A stretch of DNA of 64,000 nt from contig CAZLOI010000001.1 in NCBI GenBank assembly GCA_964561155.1, positions 3,958-67,957 on the forward strand, written 5' to 3'. Positions 33,298 to 62,637 of the stretch are shown here, piece after piece. Under the pieces are notes generated by a model that was not told the DNA's origin, searched no databases, and was given only the letters and a program-made list of their open reading frames with translations. The stretch's first letter is position 1, and each line of letters opens with the position of its first letter. The position numbers and the translations under genes are program-made. The DNA is from an uncultured Candidatus Saccharibacteria bacterium (lineage in GTDB: Bacteria > Patescibacteriota > Dojkabacteria > J137).

Positions 33298-34083
33298 TCA
33301 GAAAAGAATCTTTGATTTTGCAGTATCAATAGCACTTTCTGTCCCTACAAGGTAGAAGTCCATATTTTGGTATCTTACAATCTCAAGCTTTGCTCCAGAT
33401 TCCTCTGCTATTAGAAGACCTGCGAATATATCTGCTTTCTCTTTTGTCTTCCTGATACTCTTAATGAATATTTGGAAATAGTTTCGAGATAGGTAGCAAA
33501 GAGATAGTGCACCACTTCCTAGCATTCTTGTTTTAAGGAATTCTTCTATAGATCTTTGGTAGCAGACATGTAGCCAAGTAGCTTCGGACTTGTCTTTAAT
33601 AACGTGATCGAAGCTTAATATTGTTCTATCAACTGTTACATTTTGTTTGAATTTAAGCTCTACTTCAGTTTTACCATTAATTAATCTGGCACCCATCCCT
33701 TTCTCTGCTACAAAGATTTCTCCTGTCATAATATTGGCCACTATTGCAAATACAGAAGTCTCATCGAGTATTCGAACTATAGATATAGAACTTAATGGCA
33801 CTCCGTGCAAATATTGACCAGTTCCATCTATCGGATCTATAAGCCAGCCACCTTCATCTCCACCTGATTCTTCTCCCCATACTCTTTCCTCTGGAAAACT
33901 TTCCTTAAGAAACTCTTTAAGCTTCTCTTCAATATATGAATCTACTTCGGATACAAGTTCATGGTTATCCTTCTCCGAAAAGGAACTTGGGACATTTTCT
34001 TTGGCGTATGAAGCGAGTTGTTTTACTAGAAGTATTAGTTTCTTGTATTTAGCTTTATTTGACTTCATCGAGGATTCTTTCAT
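33298..34083 (-). CDS. inositol monophosphatase / 3'(2'),5'-bisphosphate nucleotidase family protein
   Basis: WGEESGG...GWLIDPIDGTGQYLHGVP (metal-binding DPIDGT motif) and the C-terminal ADIFAGLLIAEESGAKL (WD..AG-type motif). Confidence 0.75.
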   Translation of the reverse strand: MKESSMKSNKAKYKKLILLVKQLASYAKENVPSSFSEKDNHELVSEVDSYIEEKLKEFLKESFPEERVWGEESGGDEGGWLIDPIDGTGQYLHGVPLSSISIVRILDETSVFAIVANIMTGEIFVAEKGMGARLINGKTEVELKFKQNVTVDRTILSFDHVIKDKSEATWLHVCYQRSIEEFLKTRMLGSGALSLCYLSRNYFQIFIKSIRKTKEKADIFAGLLIAEESGAKLEIVRYQNMDFYLVGTESAIDTAKSKILF

Positions 34084-35629
34084 GATTTATATCCATAGTT
34101 TCAAGGAACTCTCTGTTTCCTTCCAAGAACTTATCAATATTTAAAAGCAAAGATTCAGAAGGTCTTAACTCGTTTACCTTTAGAATTCTTTTGATTTCCT
34201 CTTCCCCTATACCATCTGCATTATCAATCGATGCTCCTACTAGACTTAGAATCAAAGATACTTCATATTCTGAATACTTAAGACCTTTTTGACCTGGTGC
34301 AAACACTGTCCAATTTAAAACTCTATGAATACCAACATCTAATCCTTCCTCCTTTACCTTAGATTCAAGTTCATCAAAATTAACAGGAAGCTTCCTCTGC
34401 TCTTCATACACCGATGCGTAGTATTCAGCATACCCATCAACCCTATCTGGATTAATCTCAGGAATTATTAACTGTATTCTTCCAACTTTTGCTACAACTT
34501 GTTTTATCTGATCTAGAAGTATTGGTTCATTTTCTTGAATAAAGGAGTTTGCAAACATGTAGACAGGCTTCTCACTTGCTCGTATCTTATCTCCGAATTG
34601 ATTTATGATTGGCAACCAGTTGGCTACAGATCCAGGTGGTACTATCCAGTATGCCGTAGTTTCTACAATTGTATCAAAAAGATTTTGAATTTCTTCAACA
34701 TCCGTTACTTCTTCAGTACAATCAGCATTTACAAAGAGCTTGTAGCTTTCTGCAAGAAGCTTGTCGGCTGTTTCCATATTATCTATCACTCCTTCTCCTT
34801 TGATTCTTTCTCCTTTCTCAGTTATAGCTTGAAGGTGGAGACCTCGCTCTCTAAGGATTCTTAACCATAGATTCTTTGGAATTAGATTCAGATTCCTTAG
34901 AAGACCAAAGAAGAGTTCTTGCACCGAAACTTTTTCTTGGTCGAAATCAGATGATGATTCAATACTTGGACCTCTGTTCTTAAATGCCTGAACGCACTCT
35001 ATATAAAGAAAGTGGAGAATTAGATTTCCTACAGAATGCTTCACTTCAATTGAATCCGAAATAGTGTACTTGCTTTCAGCTGCTTGTTTGAATAGCTCCA
35101 GGTATTTCTGGAATCGTCTTTCTAGTACAAAAGCCAAGTCATCTGAATCGTAATCTCGTTGTTCACCATAATATGATCTAAAAAGCATCTCTCCAATTCC
35201 TGCTTTCTCTATCTTGTGCTGCGGATCTGTTATTAAAGATACTAGAAGGGAATAGGATGCTTTCTCGAACTTTCCATCTTCAAGTCTTCGTTTGAAAAGC
35301 TTTCCGTATAGTTCGCTCCATCTAGATATCTGATTACGCAAATCTCCAAGAGGAGGCGCGTCAATTTCTTCAGATGTAAGGAGGGAGTATAGTTCTCGGA
35401 AATTAGGCAAGTTCCACAAATATTGAGTTAGTTCTCTAATGATACCTGTGTGTCCTCCACTGTCTGCTCCAGTTAATATTGACTGCAAAAGCTTGCCTTT
35501 GACTCCAAAATCTCTCGTACATAGCCAGTCAAATACTACTGATGCATCTCCTGAATGGGCTAATATTGTTCCTATGTTCATATGTCTTAATGAATATATG
35601 AATTTAATTGATGGGTAAGGAATTGTCAA
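34055..35629 (-). CDS. hypothetical protein, possibly a highly divergent YvcK/CofD (UPF0052)-like protein with large insertion
   Basis: LQSILTGADSGGHTGIIRELTQY resembles the family motif ltaIvtvaDDGGSSGrLRrE. The far-downstream WIVPPGSVANWLPIINQFG resembles ivigPGSlyTSilPnLlvpgi. The spacing between the motifs is about 250 aa longer than in canonical members. Weak assignment. Confidence 0.3.
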   Translation of the reverse strand: MTIPYPSIKFIYSLRHMNIGTILAHSGDASVVFDWLCTRDFGVKGKLLQSILTGADSGGHTGIIRELTQYLWNLPNFRELYSLLTSEEIDAPPLGDLRNQISRWSELYGKLFKRRLEDGKFEKASYSLLVSLITDPQHKIEKAGIGEMLFRSYYGEQRDYDSDDLAFVLERRFQKYLELFKQAAESKYTISDSIEVKHSVGNLILHFLYIECVQAFKNRGPSIESSSDFDQEKVSVQELFFGLLRNLNLIPKNLWLRILRERGLHLQAITEKGERIKGEGVIDNMETADKLLAESYKLFVNADCTEEVTDVEEIQNLFDTIVETTAYWIVPPGSVANWLPIINQFGDKIRASEKPVYMFANSFIQENEPILLDQIKQVVAKVGRIQLIIPEINPDRVDGYAEYYASVYEEQRKLPVNFDELESKVKEEGLDVGIHRVLNWTVFAPGQKGLKYSEYEVSLILSLVGASIDNADGIGEEEIKRILKVNELRPSESLLLNIDKFLEGNREFLETMDINHERILDEVK

Positions 35630-35680: not shown

Positions 35681-36454
35681 ATGCAGAACATGTTAAGAAT
35701 TGAGAATCTAAAAGTAAACTTAAGCGAAGGAGACAAAGAAATTCTTCATGGAATCAACCTAGATATTAACCCTGGTGAAATCGTAATTATCAATGGCAAG
35801 AATGGATCGGGAAAGAGCACGTTAGTTAATGCGATCATGGGGAATCCACAGTTTAAAGTAACTGAAGGAAAGGCAACTATTCTCAACGAATCTTTTGATG
35901 ACCATACTTTGAGTTTGATTGATGAAGAGTTTGAAAAAAGAAATGCTAAAACAAACGAAATAGAAATTGAGATTTCATCAATAGAACCAAACGAAAGATC
36001 ATTGGCAGGATTGTATCTTGCTAACCAATATCCAACAGAAATACCAGGAGTTGGGTTAACTCACTTCTTAAGACTTATCTACAATTCTCGAAGACCAAAG
36101 GATCAGCAACTTAACGTATACAAGTTTAAGCTTCTTCTTAAAGAAAAGTGTGAACTAATAAAATATCCTGAACACTTGCTAACAAGGAACCTTAATGAAG
36201 GTTTTAGTGGTGGTGAAAAGAAGAAGACAGAGATTCTTCAAATGCTAATTTTAGAACCTAGATATGTGATGCTTGATGAAGTAGATTCAGGTCTTGATAG
36301 GCAGTCTGTTAAAGATGTCTTTCAAGGATTGTCTGACTTTAAGAAAGTTCTTCCCAATACTGCTTTCCTAATCATTTCTCATTACGACAAAGTTCAGGAG
36401 TATATGAAACCTGACAGGACTGTGGAAATGAGCGAAGGGTTGATAGTTGGATAA
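35681..36454 (+). CDS. sufC: Fe-S cluster assembly ATPase SufC (with about 25-aa insertion)
   Basis: GKNGSGKSTLVNAIMGNPQFKVTEGKATILNE (SufC-specific GxPxYxVTxG), NQYPTEIPGV, and LLTRNLNEGFSGGEKKKTEILQMLILEPRYVMLDEVDSGLD align closely with E. coli SufC. AGGAG at 35666-35670 is 10 nt upstream of the ATG. No sufB/sufD/sufS is adjacent. Confidence 0.8.
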   Translation: MQNMLRIENLKVNLSEGDKEILHGINLDINPGEIVIINGKNGSGKSTLVNAIMGNPQFKVTEGKATILNESFDDHTLSLIDEEFEKRNAKTNEIEIEISSIEPNERSLAGLYLANQYPTEIPGVGLTHFLRLIYNSRRPKDQQLNVYKFKLLLKEKCELIKYPEHLLTRNLNEGFSGGEKKKTEILQMLILEPRYVMLDEVDSGLDRQSVKDVFQGLSDFKKVLPNTAFLIISHYDKVQEYMKPDRTVEMSEGLIVG

Positions 36455-36514: not shown

Positions 36515-36543
36515 TTGATCTTCAGACAATACACCAGTATACT
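36515..36543 (+). promoter_or_regulatory. sigma70-like promoter TTGATC-N17-TATACT upstream of 36589
   Basis: TTGATC at 36515-36520, 17-nt spacer, TATACT at 36538-36543, about 45 nt before the ATG. Confidence 0.3.
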
Positions 36544-36588
36544 ATAGTATTTGCACAAAACTATATTTACTATTTACAACTTAAGCAT

Positions 36589-37845
36589 ATGCCAAGGAAA
36601 AGAAATTTGGAGTCATCTCCACTACTAGCTAGTCGCGTAGGAGCCAATGCGAGCACAGTAAATCCTGAGAGGTTAGACCAAGCAAGATTTACTGAGATCC
36701 AGGAAAGTTCTACGAATGAAAGCAACACTCTTCGAATTATTATTTACATCGCCATAGTTATTGCAGTTGGTGTAGGAGCAGCTATTGTTGTTCGAAACAT
36801 GTCTACAACTACTACTCCTGAAACAAATACAGATACTGTAGATGAAACTCCAGTTGTTGAAGAACAAACATTTGAAGTTGCAACAACAGTTAAAGCAAAC
36901 TCTGCAGCAACTGATGCTCCAGAAGATAGCGACTTTGTAACATCACTAACTTCAAAGATTGGTGATTCTGCAACATTATTAAGCACTGCTACTCTAGAAA
37001 CTGTATTTATAGAAAAGTATCAATCATTTGATAGAGTTGAACTAACATTCTCAACAGTAAAACTACCTTCTATTACACTTAACTTTGCACAGAGCAAGAA
37101 GTCTCTATCAATCCCATTAACTGACATTATGGAAGTTGCTGAGGATATTAAGACAACCGCAGTTGTAAACAATGTAATTGCAGGATATACATACAATTCA
37201 ACAGTTCCTGAAATAGTCCTATCTTTTGATGAAGCATCGGAATATAGAATAGTAGTAAAAGGAAATGTTTTAACTATAGATTTAAAGAAAGAAAGTGTTA
37301 GTCTAGAAGCTCCAGCTACAACTCCAGATCCAGTAGTTGAAGAACCAATGGAAGAAGAGGAAGTGGTGTCTGATGGCTCAAAGCCAGCAGCTCCATTCTA
37401 TGTAAATGAATTCTCAAAGACAAAGCAGTATATTTCAAGTGAAGTATCAACAAATACAATTGCGTACAATAACTACTTTGTTTATGACGCTAATACTTTC
37501 TTTGAATTCAGCATTGGTGCTGAAGGATTAGGAGGAGATGCAAATATTCCAAACGCTACTGCTGAGTATGTATCTGAAGGTGGAAAGGATTACATTCAAA
37601 TTGAAGTAAGTAATCTTTCAAATACACCATTCCAGGTTTCTAGAGGAAAAACTGCTGCACAAATTCAAAGTGAAACAGGTCTTGATGTATCGGGTGCAAA
37701 CTTTGTAGGTATTTCTCTAGTTAGCTTTGCGGATGGGATGGCTACATACAGAATTGAGGTAAAGAATAAGGCAGATTTCAATTTGTCTATTGAAGAATGG
37801 ACAGATGGTGTTACAGATATTTTAAGTATACAGATTAAGGACTAA
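36589..37845 (+). CDS. membrane-anchored extracytoplasmic hypothetical protein (Thr/Pro/Glu-rich linkers; two repeated beta-rich modules)
   Basis: 418 aa. A cytoplasmic 45 aa, then TM LRIIIYIAIVIAVGVGAAIVV, TTTTPETNTDT and PATTPDPVVEEPMEEEE linkers, and repeated segments (RVELTFS...ITLNF; YRIVVKGNVLTIDL; YRIEVKNKADFNLSI). Confidence 0.35.
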   Translation: MPRKRNLESSPLLASRVGANASTVNPERLDQARFTEIQESSTNESNTLRIIIYIAIVIAVGVGAAIVVRNMSTTTTPETNTDTVDETPVVEEQTFEVATTVKANSAATDAPEDSDFVTSLTSKIGDSATLLSTATLETVFIEKYQSFDRVELTFSTVKLPSITLNFAQSKKSLSIPLTDIMEVAEDIKTTAVVNNVIAGYTYNSTVPEIVLSFDEASEYRIVVKGNVLTIDLKKESVSLEAPATTPDPVVEEPMEEEEVVSDGSKPAAPFYVNEFSKTKQYISSEVSTNTIAYNNYFVYDANTFFEFSIGAEGLGGDANIPNATAEYVSEGGKDYIQIEVSNLSNTPFQVSRGKTAAQIQSETGLDVSGANFVGISLVSFADGMATYRIEVKNKADFNLSIEEWTDGVTDILSIQIKD

Positions 37846-38723
37846 TGAGATTTAAAGTTTTAAATAACATTTTACTGATTTGGATATTCCTAATGCTTAT
37901 TGGTGTTGGCTTGGGCATGGTTCTAATAGTACAAAAGACCAATGCCCCTGCCGATTCCCAAGCGGGTGATATTTCTGGTGTATTTCTTGAAATAGATTCT
38001 GTTGATAATAGAAATGTTTTCAATGTAGATGAGATTGCAGAATATAGCCTTACTTTCCGAGATACTACAAGTATAGGACAAAGCTTTGATCAGTTAAATA
38101 TCAAGGTCCAGTATCCTCTTGCTTCTCTAGAACCTATAGATGATCAGTTCTACACTCTGGGAGACAATGTAATGCCTTTGAGCGATGATATTAGTGAATG
38201 TCGATCTATCGATACAGCCACTGGGTGTGTTGAGTTTAGTCTAGCCAAGGTTAGTGGAAGTGTTCTGGAGGATAGCGAAGTTTTAGGAAGTATTTTCTTT
38301 AAAGCTATCAGCAATACAACAGAAGCTTCTGAAATTATCCTAGGTGCTGAATCTAACTTTACTTTCAATGAAGATCTTCATTCATATGTTTCTTTAAGTA
38401 CTTCTGGAACCAAAACTCCAATTGTACAGAGCTCTGCTCTATTCAAGATTCAGAACAAATGTCTTGGAGACTATAACGGAGTAAAAGATGGAGAATCTGA
38501 AGTAGATATTCAAGATTTAGTTAAGTTTGGTAGTAAGTTTGGTACACTTCTTAGTGAGAAGGATATCTTTAATTACGACCTTGTTCCTACAGAACCTAGT
38601 TGTGAAAACTGTACACCTAGACTTGATGAGTTCGATCTAAAGGTAATTATGGCTAACTACGGAGGTAGTTGTAAGTATGATAGAGACAATGTACCTGATC
38701 ATGATGAATTATTAAACCTTTAA
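37845..38723 (+). CDS. secreted/anchored protein with cohesin-like N-terminal domain and dockerin-like C-terminal Ca-binding repeats
   Basis: N-terminal TM. The C-terminus carries GDYNGVKDGESEVDIQDLVKFGSKFG and DLVPTEPSCENCTPRLDEFDLKVIMANYGG, which resemble the dockerin duplicated segment (GDvNgDGkVnsxDltllkryll). The start overlaps the upstream stop (ATGA). Confidence 0.4.
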   Translation: MRFKVLNNILLIWIFLMLIGVGLGMVLIVQKTNAPADSQAGDISGVFLEIDSVDNRNVFNVDEIAEYSLTFRDTTSIGQSFDQLNIKVQYPLASLEPIDDQFYTLGDNVMPLSDDISECRSIDTATGCVEFSLAKVSGSVLEDSEVLGSIFFKAISNTTEASEIILGAESNFTFNEDLHSYVSLSTSGTKTPIVQSSALFKIQNKCLGDYNGVKDGESEVDIQDLVKFGSKFGTLLSEKDIFNYDLVPTEPSCENCTPRLDEFDLKVIMANYGGSCKYDRDNVPDHDELLNL

Positions 38724-38724
38724 T

Positions 38725-39282
38725 ATGAGATATCAAACATTTGCATTAACAATAGTAGCGGTTGCATTAACCTTTGGATTCATTGGAGTCTGGGCAATAT
38801 ATATGCAGAATCCTTCTACGACTACAAATACAAATGTTAATAATCTAGAAAGTGTTGTTGTTAATATGGATAGCCCATATACCTTTAATTTCAACTACTC
38901 AACTTCTAGAGTTGAACTAAACGAAACTCAGGATCTATCGGTATTTCTAAATTCAGACTCTAGCGAGCTTTTTAGAGGTGCTGAAGTATTGCTTTCGTAT
39001 GATCCAACAAAGATTAAAATTGATAGTATAACGGGCTCTCCTGGCTCTTTTGATGCATATGCAGATCCTCTAGACAATTCAGGTATTATTAAAATCGCCG
39101 GTGTTACTACTGAAGACAAGGTATTGAACTTTGGTGTAGAGATTCTACGTATCAAGTTTACAAAGATTGCTTCTGGTTCTTCAGAGATCAAGATACTTGG
39201 TGGAGAGAATAATTCTAAGGTAGTTGATGATACTTTCGAAGCTTTTGCTAGCAATGAAACAATATTAACTGTTTCAGATTAA
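38725..39282 (+). CDS. cohesin domain-like secreted protein
   Basis: Signal anchor FALTIVAVALTFGFIGVWAI, then FRGAEVLLSYDPTKIKIDSITGSPGSFDAYADPLDNSGIIKIAGVT...VEILRIKFTKIASGSSEIKILG, which resembles cohesin consensus (gaeftLsYDpsvLevvsv.aG...........g.i.iag). 2 nt after the upstream stop. Confidence 0.4.
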   Translation: MRYQTFALTIVAVALTFGFIGVWAIYMQNPSTTTNTNVNNLESVVVNMDSPYTFNFNYSTSRVELNETQDLSVFLNSDSSELFRGAEVLLSYDPTKIKIDSITGSPGSFDAYADPLDNSGIIKIAGVTTEDKVLNFGVEILRIKFTKIASGSSEIKILGGENNSKVVDDTFEAFASNETILTVSD

Positions 39283-56493: not shown

Positions 56494-59400
56494 ATGGACA
56501 GAATATTCTCAAGGATCGGAATAGTATTAATAATCACACTGGTACTCGGAGGTTTATCATTAAACAATTCGGGCTCAGTTGCTGCTGATCCTATAGATCC
56601 GACACAGAGAATGTATTTAACAGATGAAATCCACGTGTCCTCTGGGCAATCTGAATCCTCACTTGCATCAGGATATTTAAGTTTTGCCGATGAGTATGGT
56701 TCACCTGGAGAGGATACAGGATATATCTTTGCACACTTGAATTGGACATATCCTACGAGCGGACCTGTAATAGCAGTTAATTCAGTTCCATCTGGATTCA
56801 CACTTGTTGATCAAACTTCATATAATTTAAATGTAAACGATACTGAGAATACAGACATAGAGTATGCCTTTGTGGCTGCTCTCTATGCGTATAACACTAA
56901 TACGTATGAAGATAATGTAAGTTTTGGATTCGACGGAGTATTTACTACAGCTAGTATGCGTGTCGTTCCAGTCGAAGGAGTAGATACTATGACTCCATAC
57001 GCTCCAGTTACTACTAACGGTACTACTGTTTCGCAACCTGAGACAGAGAATGGTGCGATTAGTACTCCTTTGGCCTTTGCTAGTGTTGCATATAACGATG
57101 GTATTGATTTCGCCCCTTGGTTTGAAACCACTGAAATCCCAACAAGTAATTACGACTGTTACCCATGTCAGTACAATGTAATCTATACGCAAACTGAAAC
57201 TGATGACACTGAAATGCCTCAGGTTTCTATCGAGGACTATTCTTTTCAGAGTGTCGATGCCCCTTATTCACAAATTGCTGTGCAATTAAATTTTGTAGAA
57301 TTCGGTACACCACAATTAACACTTGACTCTGCTACTCTTGAAGATTTCATGCTTGTAGGATCTGGTACGGCAACGACTAGTGGAGGTGCATTTATAGTTG
57401 ATGATCTGTTTTGTGATGTATGGGATCCAAACCTTAGTCAATACGTCAACATGTCAAACTGTGCTACTCCTGATGATGGAACATACGATTCAGCATTTGA
57501 AGTTTATGATATTAGTTTAGATATGACGGGTTCGGCTGCCGGAACATACAGTCTTGAGTTATTGTTTGATGAATATAATACAGCATCAGGAAATAGCAGT
57601 CCAACCCCGCTTGTAGAACTCGAAATTATTATGGATGAGTTTGGAGATGGTACAGTTGAGCTTCTAGGTGGTAGTGGGGTATTCGAAGTAGTTATCGATA
57701 CAGGACCAACAGTGGTTGGCAACGACGTAACAGTAACAGGACACGCTACATCTCAAGGAGGAGCGTACAATATATCTGATTTTGAATTTTACGTAAACGC
57801 TCAGTTTGTTGATATAAACGCTGAAGATGGATCATTTGATGAACCAATAGAAGAATTCACTTGGACTCTTAATGATCTAGCCGTCGGTAGCTATACACTA
57901 GAATTCTATGCATATGAATCTGATGGAGTTACAACAAATTGGACAATAGATTATGGAGGACCTGAAATTAGAACCTTTGACATACTACCTTCTGTCGTAC
58001 AGGTATCGCTAACTTCAGGACCAACTGTTGTTGGAAGAGAAGTTACAGTTGTTGGAGAAGCTACAGCAAGAGATCCTGCATGGCAAGTAACTGATGTTTT
58101 GTATGAAGTAAGAAATGCTTCTGGAGGTGCAGTTTATGCTTCTGGTTCAGTTCCTGCTACAGATGGAAACTATGATGGTGAACAAATAGAAAGTTTTACC
58201 TTTGTTCTTGACGATATACCTAACGGAGACTATTTACTGGATATTTGGGCTACAGAAGATGACTTTGGAGCAGGTACTGGTACTAGTGATGAACTAAATC
58301 TAAACTTTGAAATATTTATCGCCCCAGCTTTAGACTTTACTATAACTGGTCCTACAACGTCTGGAACAAGTAGTTACGTTCACTTCGAAGGTACATTAGA
58401 AGACACAGCTCCGTATAATATTGACAGAATATATTACACAGTAGAAAGTGGACCTGAAATAGATATACTTCCTGTTGATGGAGTATTTGATGAGTCTTTA
58501 GAAGAATTTGAAATTGATGCTGGTCCATTCTTTGATGGAACATTCAATGACATAAGGATCTATGGTGTAAATGAAATCAATTCAAGTATTCAGGAAACAT
58601 TCCTCAATACAACAGTAAACAATTCAAGTACAGCAGCAGACTGCGAACTAAGTAACCACGCAACTCCCACAAACGATACAACACCTACTCATACAGTTAC
58701 TTGTACTAGTCCAGACAACATAATTAAGATGGAATACAGAGTTGCTCAGGAAGTTGGAGTATTCCAAATACCTTGGACAGATATCCCACAGGGTTCCCTT
58801 TCAGCTGGTTCTTACGGATCTACATCTGTAACAGCAAGTATTACAACTTCTGCTATTCCTGATGGAAACACATCATTTGTAATTAATGCATATACAGGTA
58901 CAGGTAAATTCCATACAAATGAACCGGAAAACTTTCAAACAGGTGTAGCACCTGCACCTTACGATGTATTTGTTGTTGAAGCTACAGACAATAGTGCACC
59001 TACTATCAAACTAAACCCAATACTGCCTAATCCAGTGACATCAACAGCACCATTTATAACTGGAAGCTGTCAGGATGTTCACCCATTTGATACAAACTCA
59101 AATATTGCGACATTGCAGTATAGAATTGATGGTGGAAGTTGGACAACTATTCCTCCACTAAATGCACCTTTAGATACACCTATTGAATACTTTAGTTACC
59201 AATTACCAGAATTAGCAATTGATACATATGTATTAGATGTTAGATGTATTGACTCCGCAGGAAGGGATACAAACGCTCTAGGTGGAAATCAAACACTAAA
59301 CTTTGAAATAATAGCCCAGCCGGATGTTGAACCTGAGGAAGTTATTATTGTAGAAAACTTTACAGATGATAGTTTAAATTCTATCAATGAAACAACAGCT

Positions 59401-62400
59401 ATCTGGGGTAATGGATATATTAGACTAAAGGAAGAGATAGACTTTGATAAGACTTTAATCGACTCTGATGGTTTCGTTGATAGATACGGTTCCGTATTCT
59501 CCGATGAATTCCCATTAGCTGGAAGTGGAGATAACGTATGGTATGCAGTGGACTATGGAGTAAATAACTACGGATTAAAAAGATACAACACACTATCTAC
59601 TGCCATTACTGAGTATCAGAACATTTCTACATCCAGGTTAATAGATGTTGAGCCATTCTCACATGGAGGCATAGACTACGTTCTTGTTACACACGGAGGT
59701 GGACTTGCATTATTGCGAGTAGATACTGAAGCTCTGACAAATGTAACTTACGGTGGTTTACCAACAGCATTCTATCAGCCTAGAGGAATATATAGAGATA
59801 CTAGAAATGCAAACCTTGGATTCTATATTGGGAACGCGGTAACACTTGGAGGAACTGCAAATACATACTACTTAGACCTAAACGGTACTCCTACAACACT
59901 TGGTGATGATACATTTACTTGGTATACAACATCTCCAGGATTCGAACTTGATAATGTTGTTAGATCAGTTCTTGATACAACAAACAATGTACTGTACCTT
60001 GCTCAGTTTGGAGATGGATTGATTAGAATTGACGATGGTGGAACTCCTCTAAACTTAGGTGATGACACTAGAACGTTATTTGATTTCAATGACTTTGCTG
60101 ATGCAAGTACTATCTCAGGACTTGTTGTTGACCCTGCAGACGATGGTCTATTCATTACAACTCATTTAAATCAATCTAGACTATTCTACCTTGATGCAAA
60201 TGGGACACCTTTAAACGGTGCTGACGATACAGTTACTCAACTTGCAGATACATTAGACTTACTACAACAAAGAATTGATAACCTAGTATTCGTTGAAGGT
60301 CCTGAATATGTTGGAGGACAACTGTTCATGATGACTAGAACTGGAAAGCTATTCTACTACAATACAAACGGTACATATAGCCAAGCATCTGACGATACAG
60401 AAATACTTTGGGAAACAAATGAAGGATTATTCCCAGAATACATCTCTGATATCTATGTAGCTGACTACAACACAGTGTATGGAAACTTCCAGCATACTGG
60501 TATGTCTAGAATTGATCTAAACAGAAGTTGGGAGGATACAGGAGATGCTGTAACTATCTCAATTCCACCTGAAGTTAGACTTATTGTTAACAACATTAAC
60601 CTAGAAGACGTGCTTGTTGGTCCACTTCTTGAAGACGTAGATGGATTACAGGAACCTAATAGTGAATCAGTTGGAGTTCAGTATTTTGTCTCAATTGACG
60701 ATGGTGTTACATATGACGAATTAACAGTTGGAGAACTTAAGACAGTTCTTGAAGAAGACTATAGATTGAAACTAAAGATCACTCTTACAAAGATTGGTTT
60801 AAATAGTAAGACACCAATTATCGAAGGATTTACTCTTGCCTATGGGGCATACGAAGGCCCTATAGCACCTGAAGATGTTGATAGTTTAGACATTGTAGTC
60901 TCTCCTACTACATTCAATACAGATACCAACTTCAATATAACAGTACGAGCTTTGGATATTCTAGGTTTCCCAGTAGCTAGTGTAGATGATGTAGGTTCTA
61001 TGCAATTAAAAGACTTTGTTACAGATGCGAATGTTGATGCATTAACACCAATAACTCTAGACTTTAATGATGGTGTAGCTACAATTACAACTGCACAAAT
61101 TAGCCAGGCGGGATCTTACAAGATTACTGCTACTCACGGAGCAGAATCAGTAGATTCAGTTCAGCTAACAGTAAATCAAGGACCACTTCCAGACCCAGAT
61201 CCAGAGCCTGGAATAACTCATACATTATCATTCTTTACAGATACTCCTACAATTCAAAAAGGAAACGCAGCAATCCTTACATGGAATACAACAAATACTG
61301 TATCAGCAACCATTCAAGGATATGGTTCAGTTCCTGTAAATGGAAACTTGTCTGTGTCACCTGAAGTAACAACTACATACTACATAACAGCATTTGATGC
61401 AGAGGGAGATACATTAACCGCATCACTTACTATTACTGTTGTAGATGGTGTTGGAAGTCAGACACCTGTTTCAACTCCACTAGATGATGAAGGGAATCCT
61501 ATTCCACTAGAACTAATCGTTCCTGATGATTACATTGAAGTCTTAATAGGTAACCCAGTTACAATCACATGGACTACTGAAGGTAATCCAGACAGTGTTT
61601 ATATCGACTATCTTGGAAGAAACGCAACTAGCTCAGGAAGCTTTGAGTTCTACCCAGATCGAGACATTGTAATTACAATTACTGCTACAAGAGGAGGTGA
61701 AACTATTACCAGAACAATAACTATTAGAGTTATCGATGGATTACCAAATCCATATACACCTGCTCTAGTTGCTGCTACTGGTATCTTATTAACTAGCTTA
61801 ATGACTGGCGGAATTGCACAGTACTTCTCATTGTTCCTAGGATTAGTATTATTCAGAAAAAGAAGATACTGGGGTGTTGTTTACAATGCTTCGAAGTACC
61901 TACCTATTCCATTCGTAACAGTACGTGTGTACAAAGTTACAATGAAAGCAAAGGAATATGTAGCTCAAACTGTTACAGACCTTGAAGGTAAGTATGGAAT
62001 TCCTGTTGGAATTGAAGGTGAATATCAGGTTGAATTCATTCACGATGGATATAGAACTGAAGTTAAGAACCTTTCTATTCAACAGAACTCAGACATCATT
62101 CTAGATGTTGGTATGATCGAACTAGATACTGAAGGTATGCCATTAAGTAGCAAGATTAAGATATTCTTTAAAGAGAATTCCCCTACAATCATGCAGTGGT
62201 TAAGAGTTGCAATCATTGCCTTAATGCTTGTTGGTGCATACATTACTCTACAGGTAATAAGTCTATCACCTCTAGCTATTAACTATATTGTTCTTGTACT
62301 CTACGCTGTTGCAATAGTTACTCAAACTATTGTTCTCTTGAGTCCATACATTAATGTTAAGCGAGGTAAGGTTGTTGAGATTTCTTCTAAGAGACCTGTT

Positions 62401-62637
62401 AAAGGAGCTGTATTTAGAATTCTTGGAGACAATCAAAAAGCTACACAAGGCGTTGAAAGCCTTTCATTCACAAATGACTATGGAGTACTTAAGATTAGAG
62501 TTGCTCCAGGTAAGTATGCATATCAGGTATCAAAACCTGGGTATGAGGCTAACACTGGTGAAATGAGAATAGATGAGTCAGGAAAGATAACTGAAACGAT
62601 CTATATGACTAAAGGATCAGGAGGCTTTGGATCATAA
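56494..62637 (+). CDS. giant (2047 aa) cell-surface protein: signal peptide, N-terminal domain, Ig-like tandem repeats, beta-propeller-like repeat region, Ig-like pair, and C-terminal TM helices interleaved with two PEGA/carboxypeptidase-regulatory-like domains
   Basis: Uninterrupted 6.1-kb ORF. N-terminal MDRIFSRIGIVLIITLVLGGLSLNNSGSVAA. About 100-aa repeats share V(T/V)G.AT...Y.V......DG.FDE..EEF.F.L..L..G.Y.L...A. Four to five repeats spaced about 50 aa apart read LDLNGTPTTLGDDTF / IDDGGTPLNLGDDTR / LDANGTPLNGADDTV / YNTNGTYSQASDDTE. C-terminal segments TLSFFTDTPTIQKGNAAILTWNTTNTVSATIQGYGSVPVNG...TTTYYITAF form a PKD/Ig-like pair. TM segments are ALVAATGILLTSLMTGGIAQYFSLFLGLVLF and IIALMLVGAYITLQVISLSPLAINYIVLVLYAVAIV. 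PEGA-like blocks are VRVYKVTMKAKEYVAQTVTDLEGKYGIPVGIEGEYQVEFIHDGYRTEV and GAVFRILGDNQKATQGVESLSFTNDYGVLKIRVAPGKYAYQVSKPGYEANTGEMRI. Confidence 0.75.
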   Translation: MDRIFSRIGIVLIITLVLGGLSLNNSGSVAADPIDPTQRMYLTDEIHVSSGQSESSLASGYLSFADEYGSPGEDTGYIFAHLNWTYPTSGPVIAVNSVPSGFTLVDQTSYNLNVNDTENTDIEYAFVAALYAYNTNTYEDNVSFGFDGVFTTASMRVVPVEGVDTMTPYAPVTTNGTTVSQPETENGAISTPLAFASVAYNDGIDFAPWFETTEIPTSNYDCYPCQYNVIYTQTETDDTEMPQVSIEDYSFQSVDAPYSQIAVQLNFVEFGTPQLTLDSATLEDFMLVGSGTATTSGGAFIVDDLFCDVWDPNLSQYVNMSNCATPDDGTYDSAFEVYDISLDMTGSAAGTYSLELLFDEYNTASGNSSPTPLVELEIIMDEFGDGTVELLGGSGVFEVVIDTGPTVVGNDVTVTGHATSQGGAYNISDFEFYVNAQFVDINAEDGSFDEPIEEFTWTLNDLAVGSYTLEFYAYESDGVTTNWTIDYGGPEIRTFDILPSVVQVSLTSGPTVVGREVTVVGEATARDPAWQVTDVLYEVRNASGGAVYASGSVPATDGNYDGEQIESFTFVLDDIPNGDYLLDIWATEDDFGAGTGTSDELNLNFEIFIAPALDFTITGPTTSGTSSYVHFEGTLEDTAPYNIDRIYYTVESGPEIDILPVDGVFDESLEEFEIDAGPFFDGTFNDIRIYGVNEINSSIQETFLNTTVNNSSTAADCELSNHATPTNDTTPTHTVTCTSPDNIIKMEYRVAQEVGVFQIPWTDIPQGSLSAGSYGSTSVTASITTSAIPDGNTSFVINAYTGTGKFHTNEPENFQTGVAPAPYDVFVVEATDNSAPTIKLNPILPNPVTSTAPFITGSCQDVHPFDTNSNIATLQYRIDGGSWTTIPPLNAPLDTPIEYFSYQLPELAIDTYVLDVRCIDSAGRDTNALGGNQTLNFEIIAQPDVEPEEVIIVENFTDDSLNSINETTAIWGNGYIRLKEEIDFDKTLIDSDGFVDRYGSVFSDEFPLAGSGDNVWYAVDYGVNNYGLKRYNTLSTAITEYQNISTSRLIDVEPFSHGGIDYVLVTHGGGLALLRVDTEALTNVTYGGLPTAFYQPRGIYRDTRNANLGFYIGNAVTLGGTANTYYLDLNGTPTTLGDDTFTWYTTSPGFELDNVVRSVLDTTNNVLYLAQFGDGLIRIDDGGTPLNLGDDTRTLFDFNDFADASTISGLVVDPADDGLFITTHLNQSRLFYLDANGTPLNGADDTVTQLADTLDLLQQRIDNLVFVEGPEYVGGQLFMMTRTGKLFYYNTNGTYSQASDDTEILWETNEGLFPEYISDIYVADYNTVYGNFQHTGMSRIDLNRSWEDTGDAVTISIPPEVRLIVNNINLEDVLVGPLLEDVDGLQEPNSESVGVQYFVSIDDGVTYDELTVGELKTVLEEDYRLKLKITLTKIGLNSKTPIIEGFTLAYGAYEGPIAPEDVDSLDIVVSPTTFNTDTNFNITVRALDILGFPVASVDDVGSMQLKDFVTDANVDALTPITLDFNDGVATITTAQISQAGSYKITATHGAESVDSVQLTVNQGPLPDPDPEPGITHTLSFFTDTPTIQKGNAAILTWNTTNTVSATIQGYGSVPVNGNLSVSPEVTTTYYITAFDAEGDTLTASLTITVVDGVGSQTPVSTPLDDEGNPIPLELIVPDDYIEVLIGNPVTITWTTEGNPDSVYIDYLGRNATSSGSFEFYPDRDIVITITATRGGETITRTITIRVIDGLPNPYTPALVAATGILLTSLMTGGIAQYFSLFLGLVLFRKRRYWGVVYNASKYLPIPFVTVRVYKVTMKAKEYVAQTVTDLEGKYGIPVGIEGEYQVEFIHDGYRTEVKNLSIQQNSDIILDVGMIELDTEGMPLSSKIKIFFKENSPTIMQWLRVAIIALMLVGAYITLQVISLSPLAINYIVLVLYAVAIVTQTIVLLSPYINVKRGKVVEISSKRPVKGAVFRILGDNQKATQGVESLSFTNDYGVLKIRVAPGKYAYQVSKPGYEANTGEMRIDESGKITETIYMTKGSGGFGS
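57697..58623 (+). repeat. three consecutive about 100-aa Ig-like domain repeats inside the giant ORF (protein-level tandem repeat; additional diverged copies downstream)
   Basis: Repeat units begin TGPTVVGNDVTVTGHATSQGG..., TSGPTVVGREVTVVGEATARDP..., TGPTTSGTSSYVHFEGTLEDTAP.... Each contains a DG.FDE.(I/L)EEF core. Confidence 0.4.

Follow-up and report, generated by a model that had tools for sequence, protein, structure and literature searches.

Cohesin- and dockerin-like modules occur outside cellulosomes, for example in Archaeoglobus fulgidus proteins that carry both. In Ruminococcus flavefaciens, a cellulolytic Firmicute, the sca cluster encodes the adaptor scaffoldin ScaC, which has one cohesin and a C-terminal dockerin, and ScaE, which has one cohesin and an LPXTG motif. 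In Clostridium perfringens, cohesin-dockerin assembly unrelated to cellulosomes is found in glycosidase/toxin pairs (NagH, NagJ; PDB 2ozn, 2jh2, 2o4e, 2vo8, 2w1n). Here, three adjacent genes, named p1, p2 and p3, are described from a 64-kb stretch of contig CAZLOI010000001.1 (hereafter the window, meaning this whole stretch). The p2 and p3 proteins appear to belong to the cohesin family, and the reading favored here, on which confidence is evenly balanced, is that they form a conserved two-gene cassette through which a small protein complex would assemble on the external side of the cytoplasmic membrane of a very small, uncultivated Dojkabacteria cell, with the C-terminal module of p2 as a very divergent dockerin-type (paired F-hand) plug that docks onto p3.

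In architecture, the p2-p3 cassette appears closest to ScaC/ScaE of R. flavefaciens, and in predicted fold to the non-cellulosomal cohesins of C. perfringens. Like ScaC, p2 joins one cohesin-type domain to a C-terminal duplicated module with a putative docking function, and, as in the sca cluster, it is co-encoded with single-cohesin anchoring proteins, including in some relatives (loci L007 and L009-L012) a further protein, p4, that is of the LPxTG type like ScaE. Unlike in the sca cluster, neither enzymes nor carbohydrate-binding modules (CBMs) nor a multi-cohesin scaffoldin are encoded near the cassette, the anchors of p2 and p3 are hydrophobic segments at the N-terminus, and the host is a bacterium of the candidate phyla radiation (CPR) with a contig of ~0.8 Mb. 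Its p2 module also differs from the sca dockerin in that it fails the dockerin hidden Markov model (HMM), has longer loops and carries a Cys-Cys clamp. Among known structures, those of the C. perfringens set match the p2 beta domain best, and one of them is the top, though non-significant, match of the p2 module; its modules, however, are recognized by Pfam and appended to large secreted enzymes, whereas those of p2 and p3 make up the whole of a membrane-anchored protein and the dockerin assignment is unproven. Like the A. fulgidus proteins, p2 is a small protein with a cohesin and a candidate dockerin-type module in an organism that has no cellulosome, but the A. fulgidus modules can be detected by standard HMMs, with which the p2 module is not detectable.

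CPR bacteria, or Patescibacteria, are thought to live attached to other cells, and their surface proteins are little known. SEML1_0315, a dockerin-domain cell-envelope protein of the Saccharibacterium Southlakia epibionticum, was reported to be essential in co-culture and proposed to have a role in host interaction (PMC10633639), and because it is essential, dockerin modules appear to matter in this superphylum. By its description, SEML1_0315 resembles p2 in being a Patescibacteria envelope protein with a dockerin domain (in p2 only a candidate one), but it comes from a different phylum-level lineage and a paired cohesin was not reported for it (PMC10633639). In addition, in the Pam pili of CPR, the pilins lose a signal peptide by cleavage and are built of a nine-strand beta-sandwich as N-domain, a linker strand and, for donor-strand exchange, an immunoglobulin (Ig)-like C-domain that is truncated (bioRxiv 10.64898/2026.03.03.709456). 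Pam and the present cassette have in common that CPR-specific surface proteins with paired cysteines and a nine-strand beta-sandwich are encoded in an operon together with small membrane-anchored partners, but they are set apart by architecture, since p2 ends in a helical module instead of an Ig-like C-domain and the Pam chaperones, unlike p2 and p3, carry C-terminal transmembrane helices (bioRxiv 10.64898/2026.03.03.709456). A search of the published literature found no description of the p2-p3 cassette.

The three genes of the window are as follows:

36589-37845, plus strand: p1, open reading frame (ORF) of 418 amino acids (aa)
37845-38723, plus strand: p2, ORF of 292 aa
38725-39282, plus strand: p3, ORF of 185 aa

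These ORFs were confirmed as an initial annotation of this DNA had placed them. The 4-nt ATGA overlap that it described is not present; at the p1/p2 junction, the stop TAA and the start ATG overlap by one base (TAATG, 37843-37847), and a single base lies between the p2 TAA and the p3 ATG, and because of these junctions the three genes are considered to be translationally coupled. They are real genes and not chance ORFs, as orthologues with 25-99% identity in many metagenomes retain their length, anchors and invariant cysteines. Each of the three proteins has exactly one strongly hydrophobic stretch of 19 residues (Kyte-Doolittle) on its N-terminal side, which agrees with the N-terminal anchors of the initial annotation, and the motifs that it quoted were recovered in p2 (GDYNGVKDGESEVDIQDLVKFG; DLVPTEPSCENCTPRLDEFDLKVIMANYGG) and p3 (GAEVLLSYDPTKIKIDSITG). 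Pfam and NCBIfam scans of p1, p2 and p3 gave a single match, a sub-threshold Cohesin on p3.

The p2 protein begins with a hydrophobic stretch, either an anchor or a long signal peptide, which is followed by a cohesin-like beta-sandwich and, at the C-terminus, by a duplicated loop-helix module. The first two parts are located as follows:

37875-37931, plus strand: hydrophobic segment of p2, residues 11-29 (Kyte-Doolittle 2.85)
37941-37967, plus strand: juxtamembrane motif NAPADSQAG, residues 33-41 (alignments of p2 homologues)
37977-38354, plus strand: cohesin-like beta-sandwich, residues ~45-170 (AlphaFold model, Foldseek)

The juxtamembrane motif recurs as AP[AE]DS[QKE]A in distant p2 homologues and in the p4-like protein of L012. 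Its S-Q-A-G conforms to the small-x-small rule, and signal peptidase may cut there between Ala and Gly. A full-length AlphaFold model of p2 (6 sequences) was poor, with a predicted local distance difference test (pLDDT) of 49.5 overall and an unusable C-terminus (<40), and contained a nine-strand beta domain at residues 46-169 (pLDDT 62-78). An invariant Cys119/Cys128 pair lies in this beta-sandwich. When the domain was compared with the PDB by Foldseek, cohesin modules made up 13 of the 14 best matches (E 2.2e-4 to 3.6e-3), the best being 2jh2 (E 2.2e-4), followed by 2vn5_A, 3ghp_B, 2vo8, 2o4e, 6kgf, 1g1k_A and others, and the template modelling score (target) against PDB cohesins reached 0.58. 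Pilins (SpaA type, E 3.6e-3), CBM3 and integrin domains ranked lower. In the p2 family, one paralogue from L012 scored 24.7 bits against Pfam Cohesin (PF00963) and passed its gathering score of 24.1 bits, while P0035 (19.3 bits) and P0034 (16.8 bits) remained sub-threshold. Weak alignments over ~92-94 columns (E 6e-4 to 1.4e-2) link the beta domains of p2, p3 and p4, and p2 and p4 have a conserved Cys pair in common in the same loop. A divergent cohesin-family domain in p2, which the initial annotation had suggested, is supported at the level of family and predicted fold, and not by the Pfam score of the window sequence itself.

The p3 protein consists of an N-terminal signal-anchor (hydrophobic residues 7-25; Kyte-Doolittle 2.28), a Thr/Asn-rich stalk and a divergent cohesin domain, and looks like an uncleaved signal-anchor protein. 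Its cohesin match is located as follows:

38929-39162, plus strand: stretch of p3 matched by Pfam Cohesin, residues 69-146, containing SYDPTKIKIDSI (E 0.026, 15.2 bits)

The cohesin signature previously noted in p3 (GAEVLLSYDPTKIKIDSITG, residues 85-104) lies in this stretch. Two p3 orthologues exceed the gathering score, namely P0011 (69% identical; 27.0 bits) and that of L007 (31% identical; 24.6 bits), and that of L014 reaches 23.6 bits. On a related JGI contig, the ORF after the p2 homologue is annotated as 'Cohesin (weak)'. With hhalign, the p3 motif SYDPTKIKIDSI was aligned, not significantly, with the YSYDPNVLEIIEI strand of the CipA cohesin (sequence checked against PDB 1aoh_A), and the p3 strand RGAEVLLSYDPTKIKIDSIT with ANCDFVYSYDPNVLEIIEIK of the same cohesin in a sensible register (E 0.016, not significant). 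A divergent cohesin-family domain in p3 is likewise supported by the scores of its family, and not by that of the window sequence itself.

The C-terminal module of p2 and its two repeat segments were delimited as follows:

38457-38684, plus strand: C-terminal module of p2, residues 205-280 (conservation, predicted helices, internal repeat)
38466-38531, plus strand: repeat segment 1, GDYNGVKDGESEVDIQDLVKFG, residues 208-229 (module alignment, hhalign)
38577-38666, plus strand: repeat segment 2, DLVPTEPSCENCTPRLDEFDLKVIMANYGG, residues 245-274 (module alignment, hhalign)

In order, the module reads C-x-G-D-Y-N-loop-V-D-x-x-D-L-helix, short helix, D-L-loop-L-D-x-x-D-L-helix-N-Y-G-x-x-C. The corresponding family pattern, C-x-G-D-Y-N-x(7-12)-V-D-x-x-D-[LF]-x-x-F ... 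[YFL]-D-[LI]-x(8-16)-L-x-x-x-D-L-x-x-[FI]-x-x-N-Y-x(3-5)-C, is present in all 10 matches of the p2 profile. The p2 family has 18 invariant columns, and 12 of them fall inside the module, including Cys206 and Cys276 at its ends; dockerin termini meet, and the invariant Cys pair of the module is likewise placed at both ends. Cys253/Cys256 form an extra, clade-specific pair in the module. Together, the six cysteines of p2 make three conserved pairs, which would fit three disulfides in a protein located outside the cytoplasm. Homology between the N-terminal and C-terminal halves of the module was shown by hhalign (probability 91.5%, E 8.6e-7, 20 columns), so that two tandem homologous loop-helix segments, as known from dockerins (~22 residues each), are present. 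In a module-only AlphaFold model (11 sequences), helices were predicted at module positions 18-27, 34-39 and 58-66, the middle one being short, and the helix of each [VL]-D-x-x-D-L begins directly after its first Asp. In our reading of this model, the helix register would be that of an EF/F-hand exit helix, the succession of loop-helix, linker-helix and loop-helix would correspond to the dockerin layout, and the two Asp of [VL]-D-x-x-D-L would sit where positions 9 and 12 of an EF/F-hand are expected. The module appears to behave as an autonomous unit, because it follows an unrelated N-domain via a Ser/Thr-rich linker in P0039 and tolerates an insert of ~200-220 aa between its halves in P0035 and P0036, which is also found in a third L012 paralogue.

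Several results weigh against the proposed docking of a dockerin-type module onto a cohesin. In the window sequences themselves, p2 has no Pfam Cohesin match at E <= 10 and the p3 score lies below the gathering score, so that the Pfam Cohesin check was passed by the families only. HMM searches of PDB sequences with the p1, p2 and p3 family profiles returned neither a cohesin nor a dockerin, and hhalign of p2 against the verified CipA cohesin was not significant, though in a sensible register. For the module, Pfam Dockerin_1 (PF00404) matched 0 of the 24 module-bearing proteins, window p2 included (E cut-offs 1 to 10), and in a search of 177,635 PDB sequences with E up to 10, profiles of the module and of its repeat unit gave no dockerin. 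The hhalign probability of the module against the CelS (sequence checked against PDB 2mte_A) and CelD dockerins was <1%, although the register was sensible. The canonical EF-hand-type Ca2+ loop, with D/N at positions 1, 3, 5, 9 and 12 in both segments, is not found in the module, whose position-5 ligand is not conserved. Compared with the canonical 12 residues, its loops have 3-10 extra residues, and 4-9 extra when counted between D-x-N and V-D-x-x-D. Segment 1 retains D1, N3, D9 and D12 but has 7-12 residues instead of the canonical four between N3 and V8, and segment 2 retains only D1 and D12, with D, N, T or E at position 9. The module-only model has a modest pLDDT of 63, and its Foldseek search gave nothing significant; the top match was 2ozn_B (E 1.9, probability 0.28). 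We take this entry to be the chain of the C. perfringens cohesin-dockerin complex that carries FIVAR and dockerin, which would favor the docking reading, but the match could also fall on the three-helix FIVAR part. The two dockerin-like segments of the initial annotation persist as a conserved, duplicated loop-helix module, but their dockerin identity, with every sequence test failed and the fold search not significant, is neither confirmed nor refuted. The module resembles a dockerin on paper without being demonstrably a member of the family, and the dockerin-type reading is plausible but unproven.

The same negative sequence tests, together with the non-significant fold search and the non-canonical loop lengths, would be expected if the p2 module were an unrelated disulfide-stabilized helical tip that binds a host glycan, the cell wall or a metal, with p2, p3 and p4 as cohesin/Ig-like surface proteins whose beta domains serve as stalks or adhesin bodies; the presence of pilins, CBM3 and integrin domains lower in the fold list is also in favor of such stalks. 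This explanation is regarded as rather unlikely. Against it, a dockerin-type partner should show just such a duplication and [VL]-D-x-x-D-L-helix register and should be strictly encoded beside cohesin-family proteins, as is the case here, and no other family matches the module either. Because it has no Pfam family and the p2 family is small, the module is a cheap target for structure and binding work. An exhaustive HMMER search with the p2 profile gave only 10 representatives among 1.84 billion cluster representatives, and a metagenome scan added one further locus only.

The co-encoding of p2 and p3 is strict, in that a p3 homologue directly follows p2 in every p2-family locus whose neighborhood was examined (p3 orthology by BLAST and HMM, E 1e-12 to 9e-40). 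The pair was found in at least five different neighborhoods:

window, L001, L002 and L008: the same p1-p2-p3 trio
L009, L010 and L011: sufC-p1-p2-p3-p4-pheT
L007: p2-p3 after dnaE-murT-gatD, without p1
L012: adjoining RuBisCO, three tandem p2 paralogues, then p3, then p4, without p1
L012, 1908-6452: the three p2 paralogues (499, 506 and 483 aa), each with a domain of ~200-220 aa between the module halves
L014: p2-p3 adjoining recA, without p1
JGI contig: p2-p3 adjoining arginase

Since p1 occurs without p2/p3 (L003, L005, L006) and p2-p3 without p1 (L007, L012, L014), the 'operon' is considered to consist of two independent units, p1 and the p2-p3 cassette. Of the three-gene operon first annotated, the tight packing of the genes is retained but not its unity, and the conservation of the trio holds for its close relatives and, with p4 added, for L009-L011, but not for the loci in which the two units are separate. 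With regard to L008 (CAZYSE010000061.1), this contig is labelled as an uncultured Candidatus Saccharibacteria bacterium, its order p1-p2-p3-pheT-recO is as in Dojkabacteria loci and its p2 is 52% identical; the Saccharibacteria label may be a mis-assignment.

The p4 protein of the relatives, often encoded behind the p2-p3 cassette, contains, in this order, a signal peptide, a cohesin-like domain, a linker, an LPxTG-type motif, a hydrophobic segment and a basic tail, and is, by these features, a sortase-type substrate. It is encoded at the following positions:

L009, 5306-5995: p4
L010, 7570-8256: p4
L011, 5565-6248: p4
L007, 7497-8201: p4
L012, 7076-7996: p4

Its motifs are LPVTG, LPTTG and LPSTG, with the variants LPATA and LPDTA in L007 and L012, and Pfam Gram_pos_anchor matches p4 of L010 and L011 only, below threshold. 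The window and its close relatives have no p4, and the 64 kb of the window contain no sortase TLxTC motif and no LPxTG substrate, p1, p2 and p3 included; nor is there a second copy of the p2 module, p3 or p4 anywhere else within it. The trio of the window is therefore composed of p1 and a p2-p3 cassette from which p4 either was lost or was absent from the start.

It was also considered that the cassette builds a covalent or strand-exchanged pilus-like fiber, either sortase-polymerized as in Gram-positive bacteria or of the Pam type, with p4 as the wall-anchored base. The LPxTG motif, transmembrane segment and basic tail of p4 would suit such a fiber, as would the SpaA-type pilins among the p2 fold matches and the nine-strand beta-sandwich N-domain of Pam pilins (bioRxiv 10.64898/2026.03.03.709456). 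The proposal appears improbable, because p4 and any sortase or LPxTG motif are missing from the window, p2 and p3 have neither a C-terminal sorting signal nor an Ig-like C-domain for strand exchange, cohesins rank above pilins in the p2 fold search, and the Pam proteins differ in architecture (cleaved signal peptides; chaperones with C-terminal transmembrane helices).

In the cohesin-dockerin type of assembly proposed here, p3 would be a signal-anchored single cohesin displayed on its Thr/Asn-rich stalk. The p2 module (~70 residues, two loop-helix segments), presumably clamped by a Cys206-Cys276 disulfide, would dock onto the cohesin-like domain of p3 and, in relatives, also onto the sortase-anchored p4. 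The cohesin-like domain of p2 would stay free for a second p2 or for another module-bearing protein, such as P0039. Signal peptidase may free p2 at the S-Q-A-G site, and p3 would then be the membrane tether of p2. In this scheme, p1 would be a separate envelope protein that is co-transcribed here. The calcium dependence of the module is uncertain because its loops are non-canonical.

More tentatively, and with confidence that falls short of even, the module might be an unrecognized, disulfide-clamped branch of the dockerin superfamily restricted to Dojkabacteria-type CPR; with the anchored p3, and in relatives with p4 as well, it would make up a minimal cohesin-dockerin scaffold, free of enzymes, that organizes the surface of an ultra-small symbiont, possibly for host attachment. 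If this were true, lineage-specific expansions, such as the three L012 p2 paralogues with their inserted domain, would diversify the displayed content. For surface assembly in one lineage, a conserved, self-contained pair of anchored cohesin-type proteins and its matching docking module would offer a simple candidate, and cohesin-dockerin biology would extend to an enzyme-free, membrane-anchored form missed by standard HMMs. Should the module prove to be no dockerin, what is left is an ordinary lineage-specific pair of cohesin-like surface proteins.

The p1 protein has a cytoplasmic N-tail of 49 residues, one transmembrane helix and two extracytoplasmic domains joined by a Pro/Glu/Thr-rich linker. 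This helix and the preceding sufC gene are located as follows:

36736-36792, plus strand: transmembrane segment of p1, residues 50-68 (IIIYIAIVIAVGVGAAIVV; Kyte-Doolittle 3.03)
35681-36454, plus strand: sufC (TIGR01978, 231.5 bits against a cut-off of 212.8)

The N-tail (residues 1-49, 36589-36735) carries the motif E-S-P-L-L ... S-T-I-N-P ... L-D-Q-x-R-F-T-E, which is kept down to 27% overall identity and reads ESPLL...STVNP..LDQARFTE in the window; its conservation suggests a cytoplasmic partner. None of the 17 p1 family members examined had a Pfam match. The contigs that carry p1 homologues bear the label Candidatus Dojkabacteria, a CPR lineage also called candidate division WS6, and the closest complete-looking relative is an 817-kb contig. 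Across Dojkabacteria, p1 is always found directly after sufC, also in genomes without p2 and p3. It stands alone in L005 and L006; in L003 it is followed by an unrelated ORF of 157 aa, which was considered as a p3 and ruled out, as it is HIT-like (H-x-H-x-H-type motif, by eye) and does not resemble p3. The sufC gene of the window is stand-alone, with neither sufB nor sufD adjoining, and p1 occupies a place that is often held by sufD. A divergent SufD was ruled out for p1, which has a transmembrane helix and whose homologues gave no SufBD Pfam match (0 of 17). In the four-gene relatives, a protein of 299-320 aa is encoded upstream of sufC (L009 559-1521, L010 2885-3784, L011 871-1791), with an N-terminal hydrophobic segment, a weak PKD-domain match and a C-terminal transmembrane segment with a basic tail; no counterpart is found at that position in the window.

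In its first ectodomain, the p1 family profile weakly and non-significantly matched PilQ of Myxococcus in the AMIN region (E 0.33). Together with the translational coupling of the three genes and their conserved place among core genes, this could point to a single housekeeping envelope complex tied to sufC, pheT, recO and secY, for example a cell-wall or division scaffold organized by p1 with a possible AMIN-like domain. Such a complex is very improbable, because p1 and p2-p3 occur without each other in the loci named above, the AMIN hint is not significant and the p2 family is far rarer than that of p1. p1 is a separate, Dojkabacteria-wide envelope protein and not an obligate partner of p2/p3.

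The window has ~35% G+C, and p1-p2-p3 is surrounded by gltX, sufC, pheT, recO and secY. The following promoter-like sites lie inside the 134-nt gap between sufC and p1:

36515-36548, plus strand: two overlapping sigma-70-like promoter matches, TTGATC-17-TATACT and TTCAGA-16-TATAGT (consensus scan)

This pair is a possible start of a p1-p2-p3 transcript, although the number of sigma-70-like sites in the region is no higher than expected from shuffling and only the position is suggestive. Further along the plus strand, an ORF of 2047 aa (56494-62637), which has no p2 module, probably encodes a giant surface protein; its Pfam matches are CarboxypepD_reg-like only, near the C-terminus (residues ~1794-1872). 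In addition, an ORF of 524 aa on the minus strand (34055-35629), between an inositol-phosphatase-like gene and sufC, has no Pfam or NCBIfam match, and its syntenic counterpart in L005 and L006 (466 aa) is annotated as CofD (PF01933).

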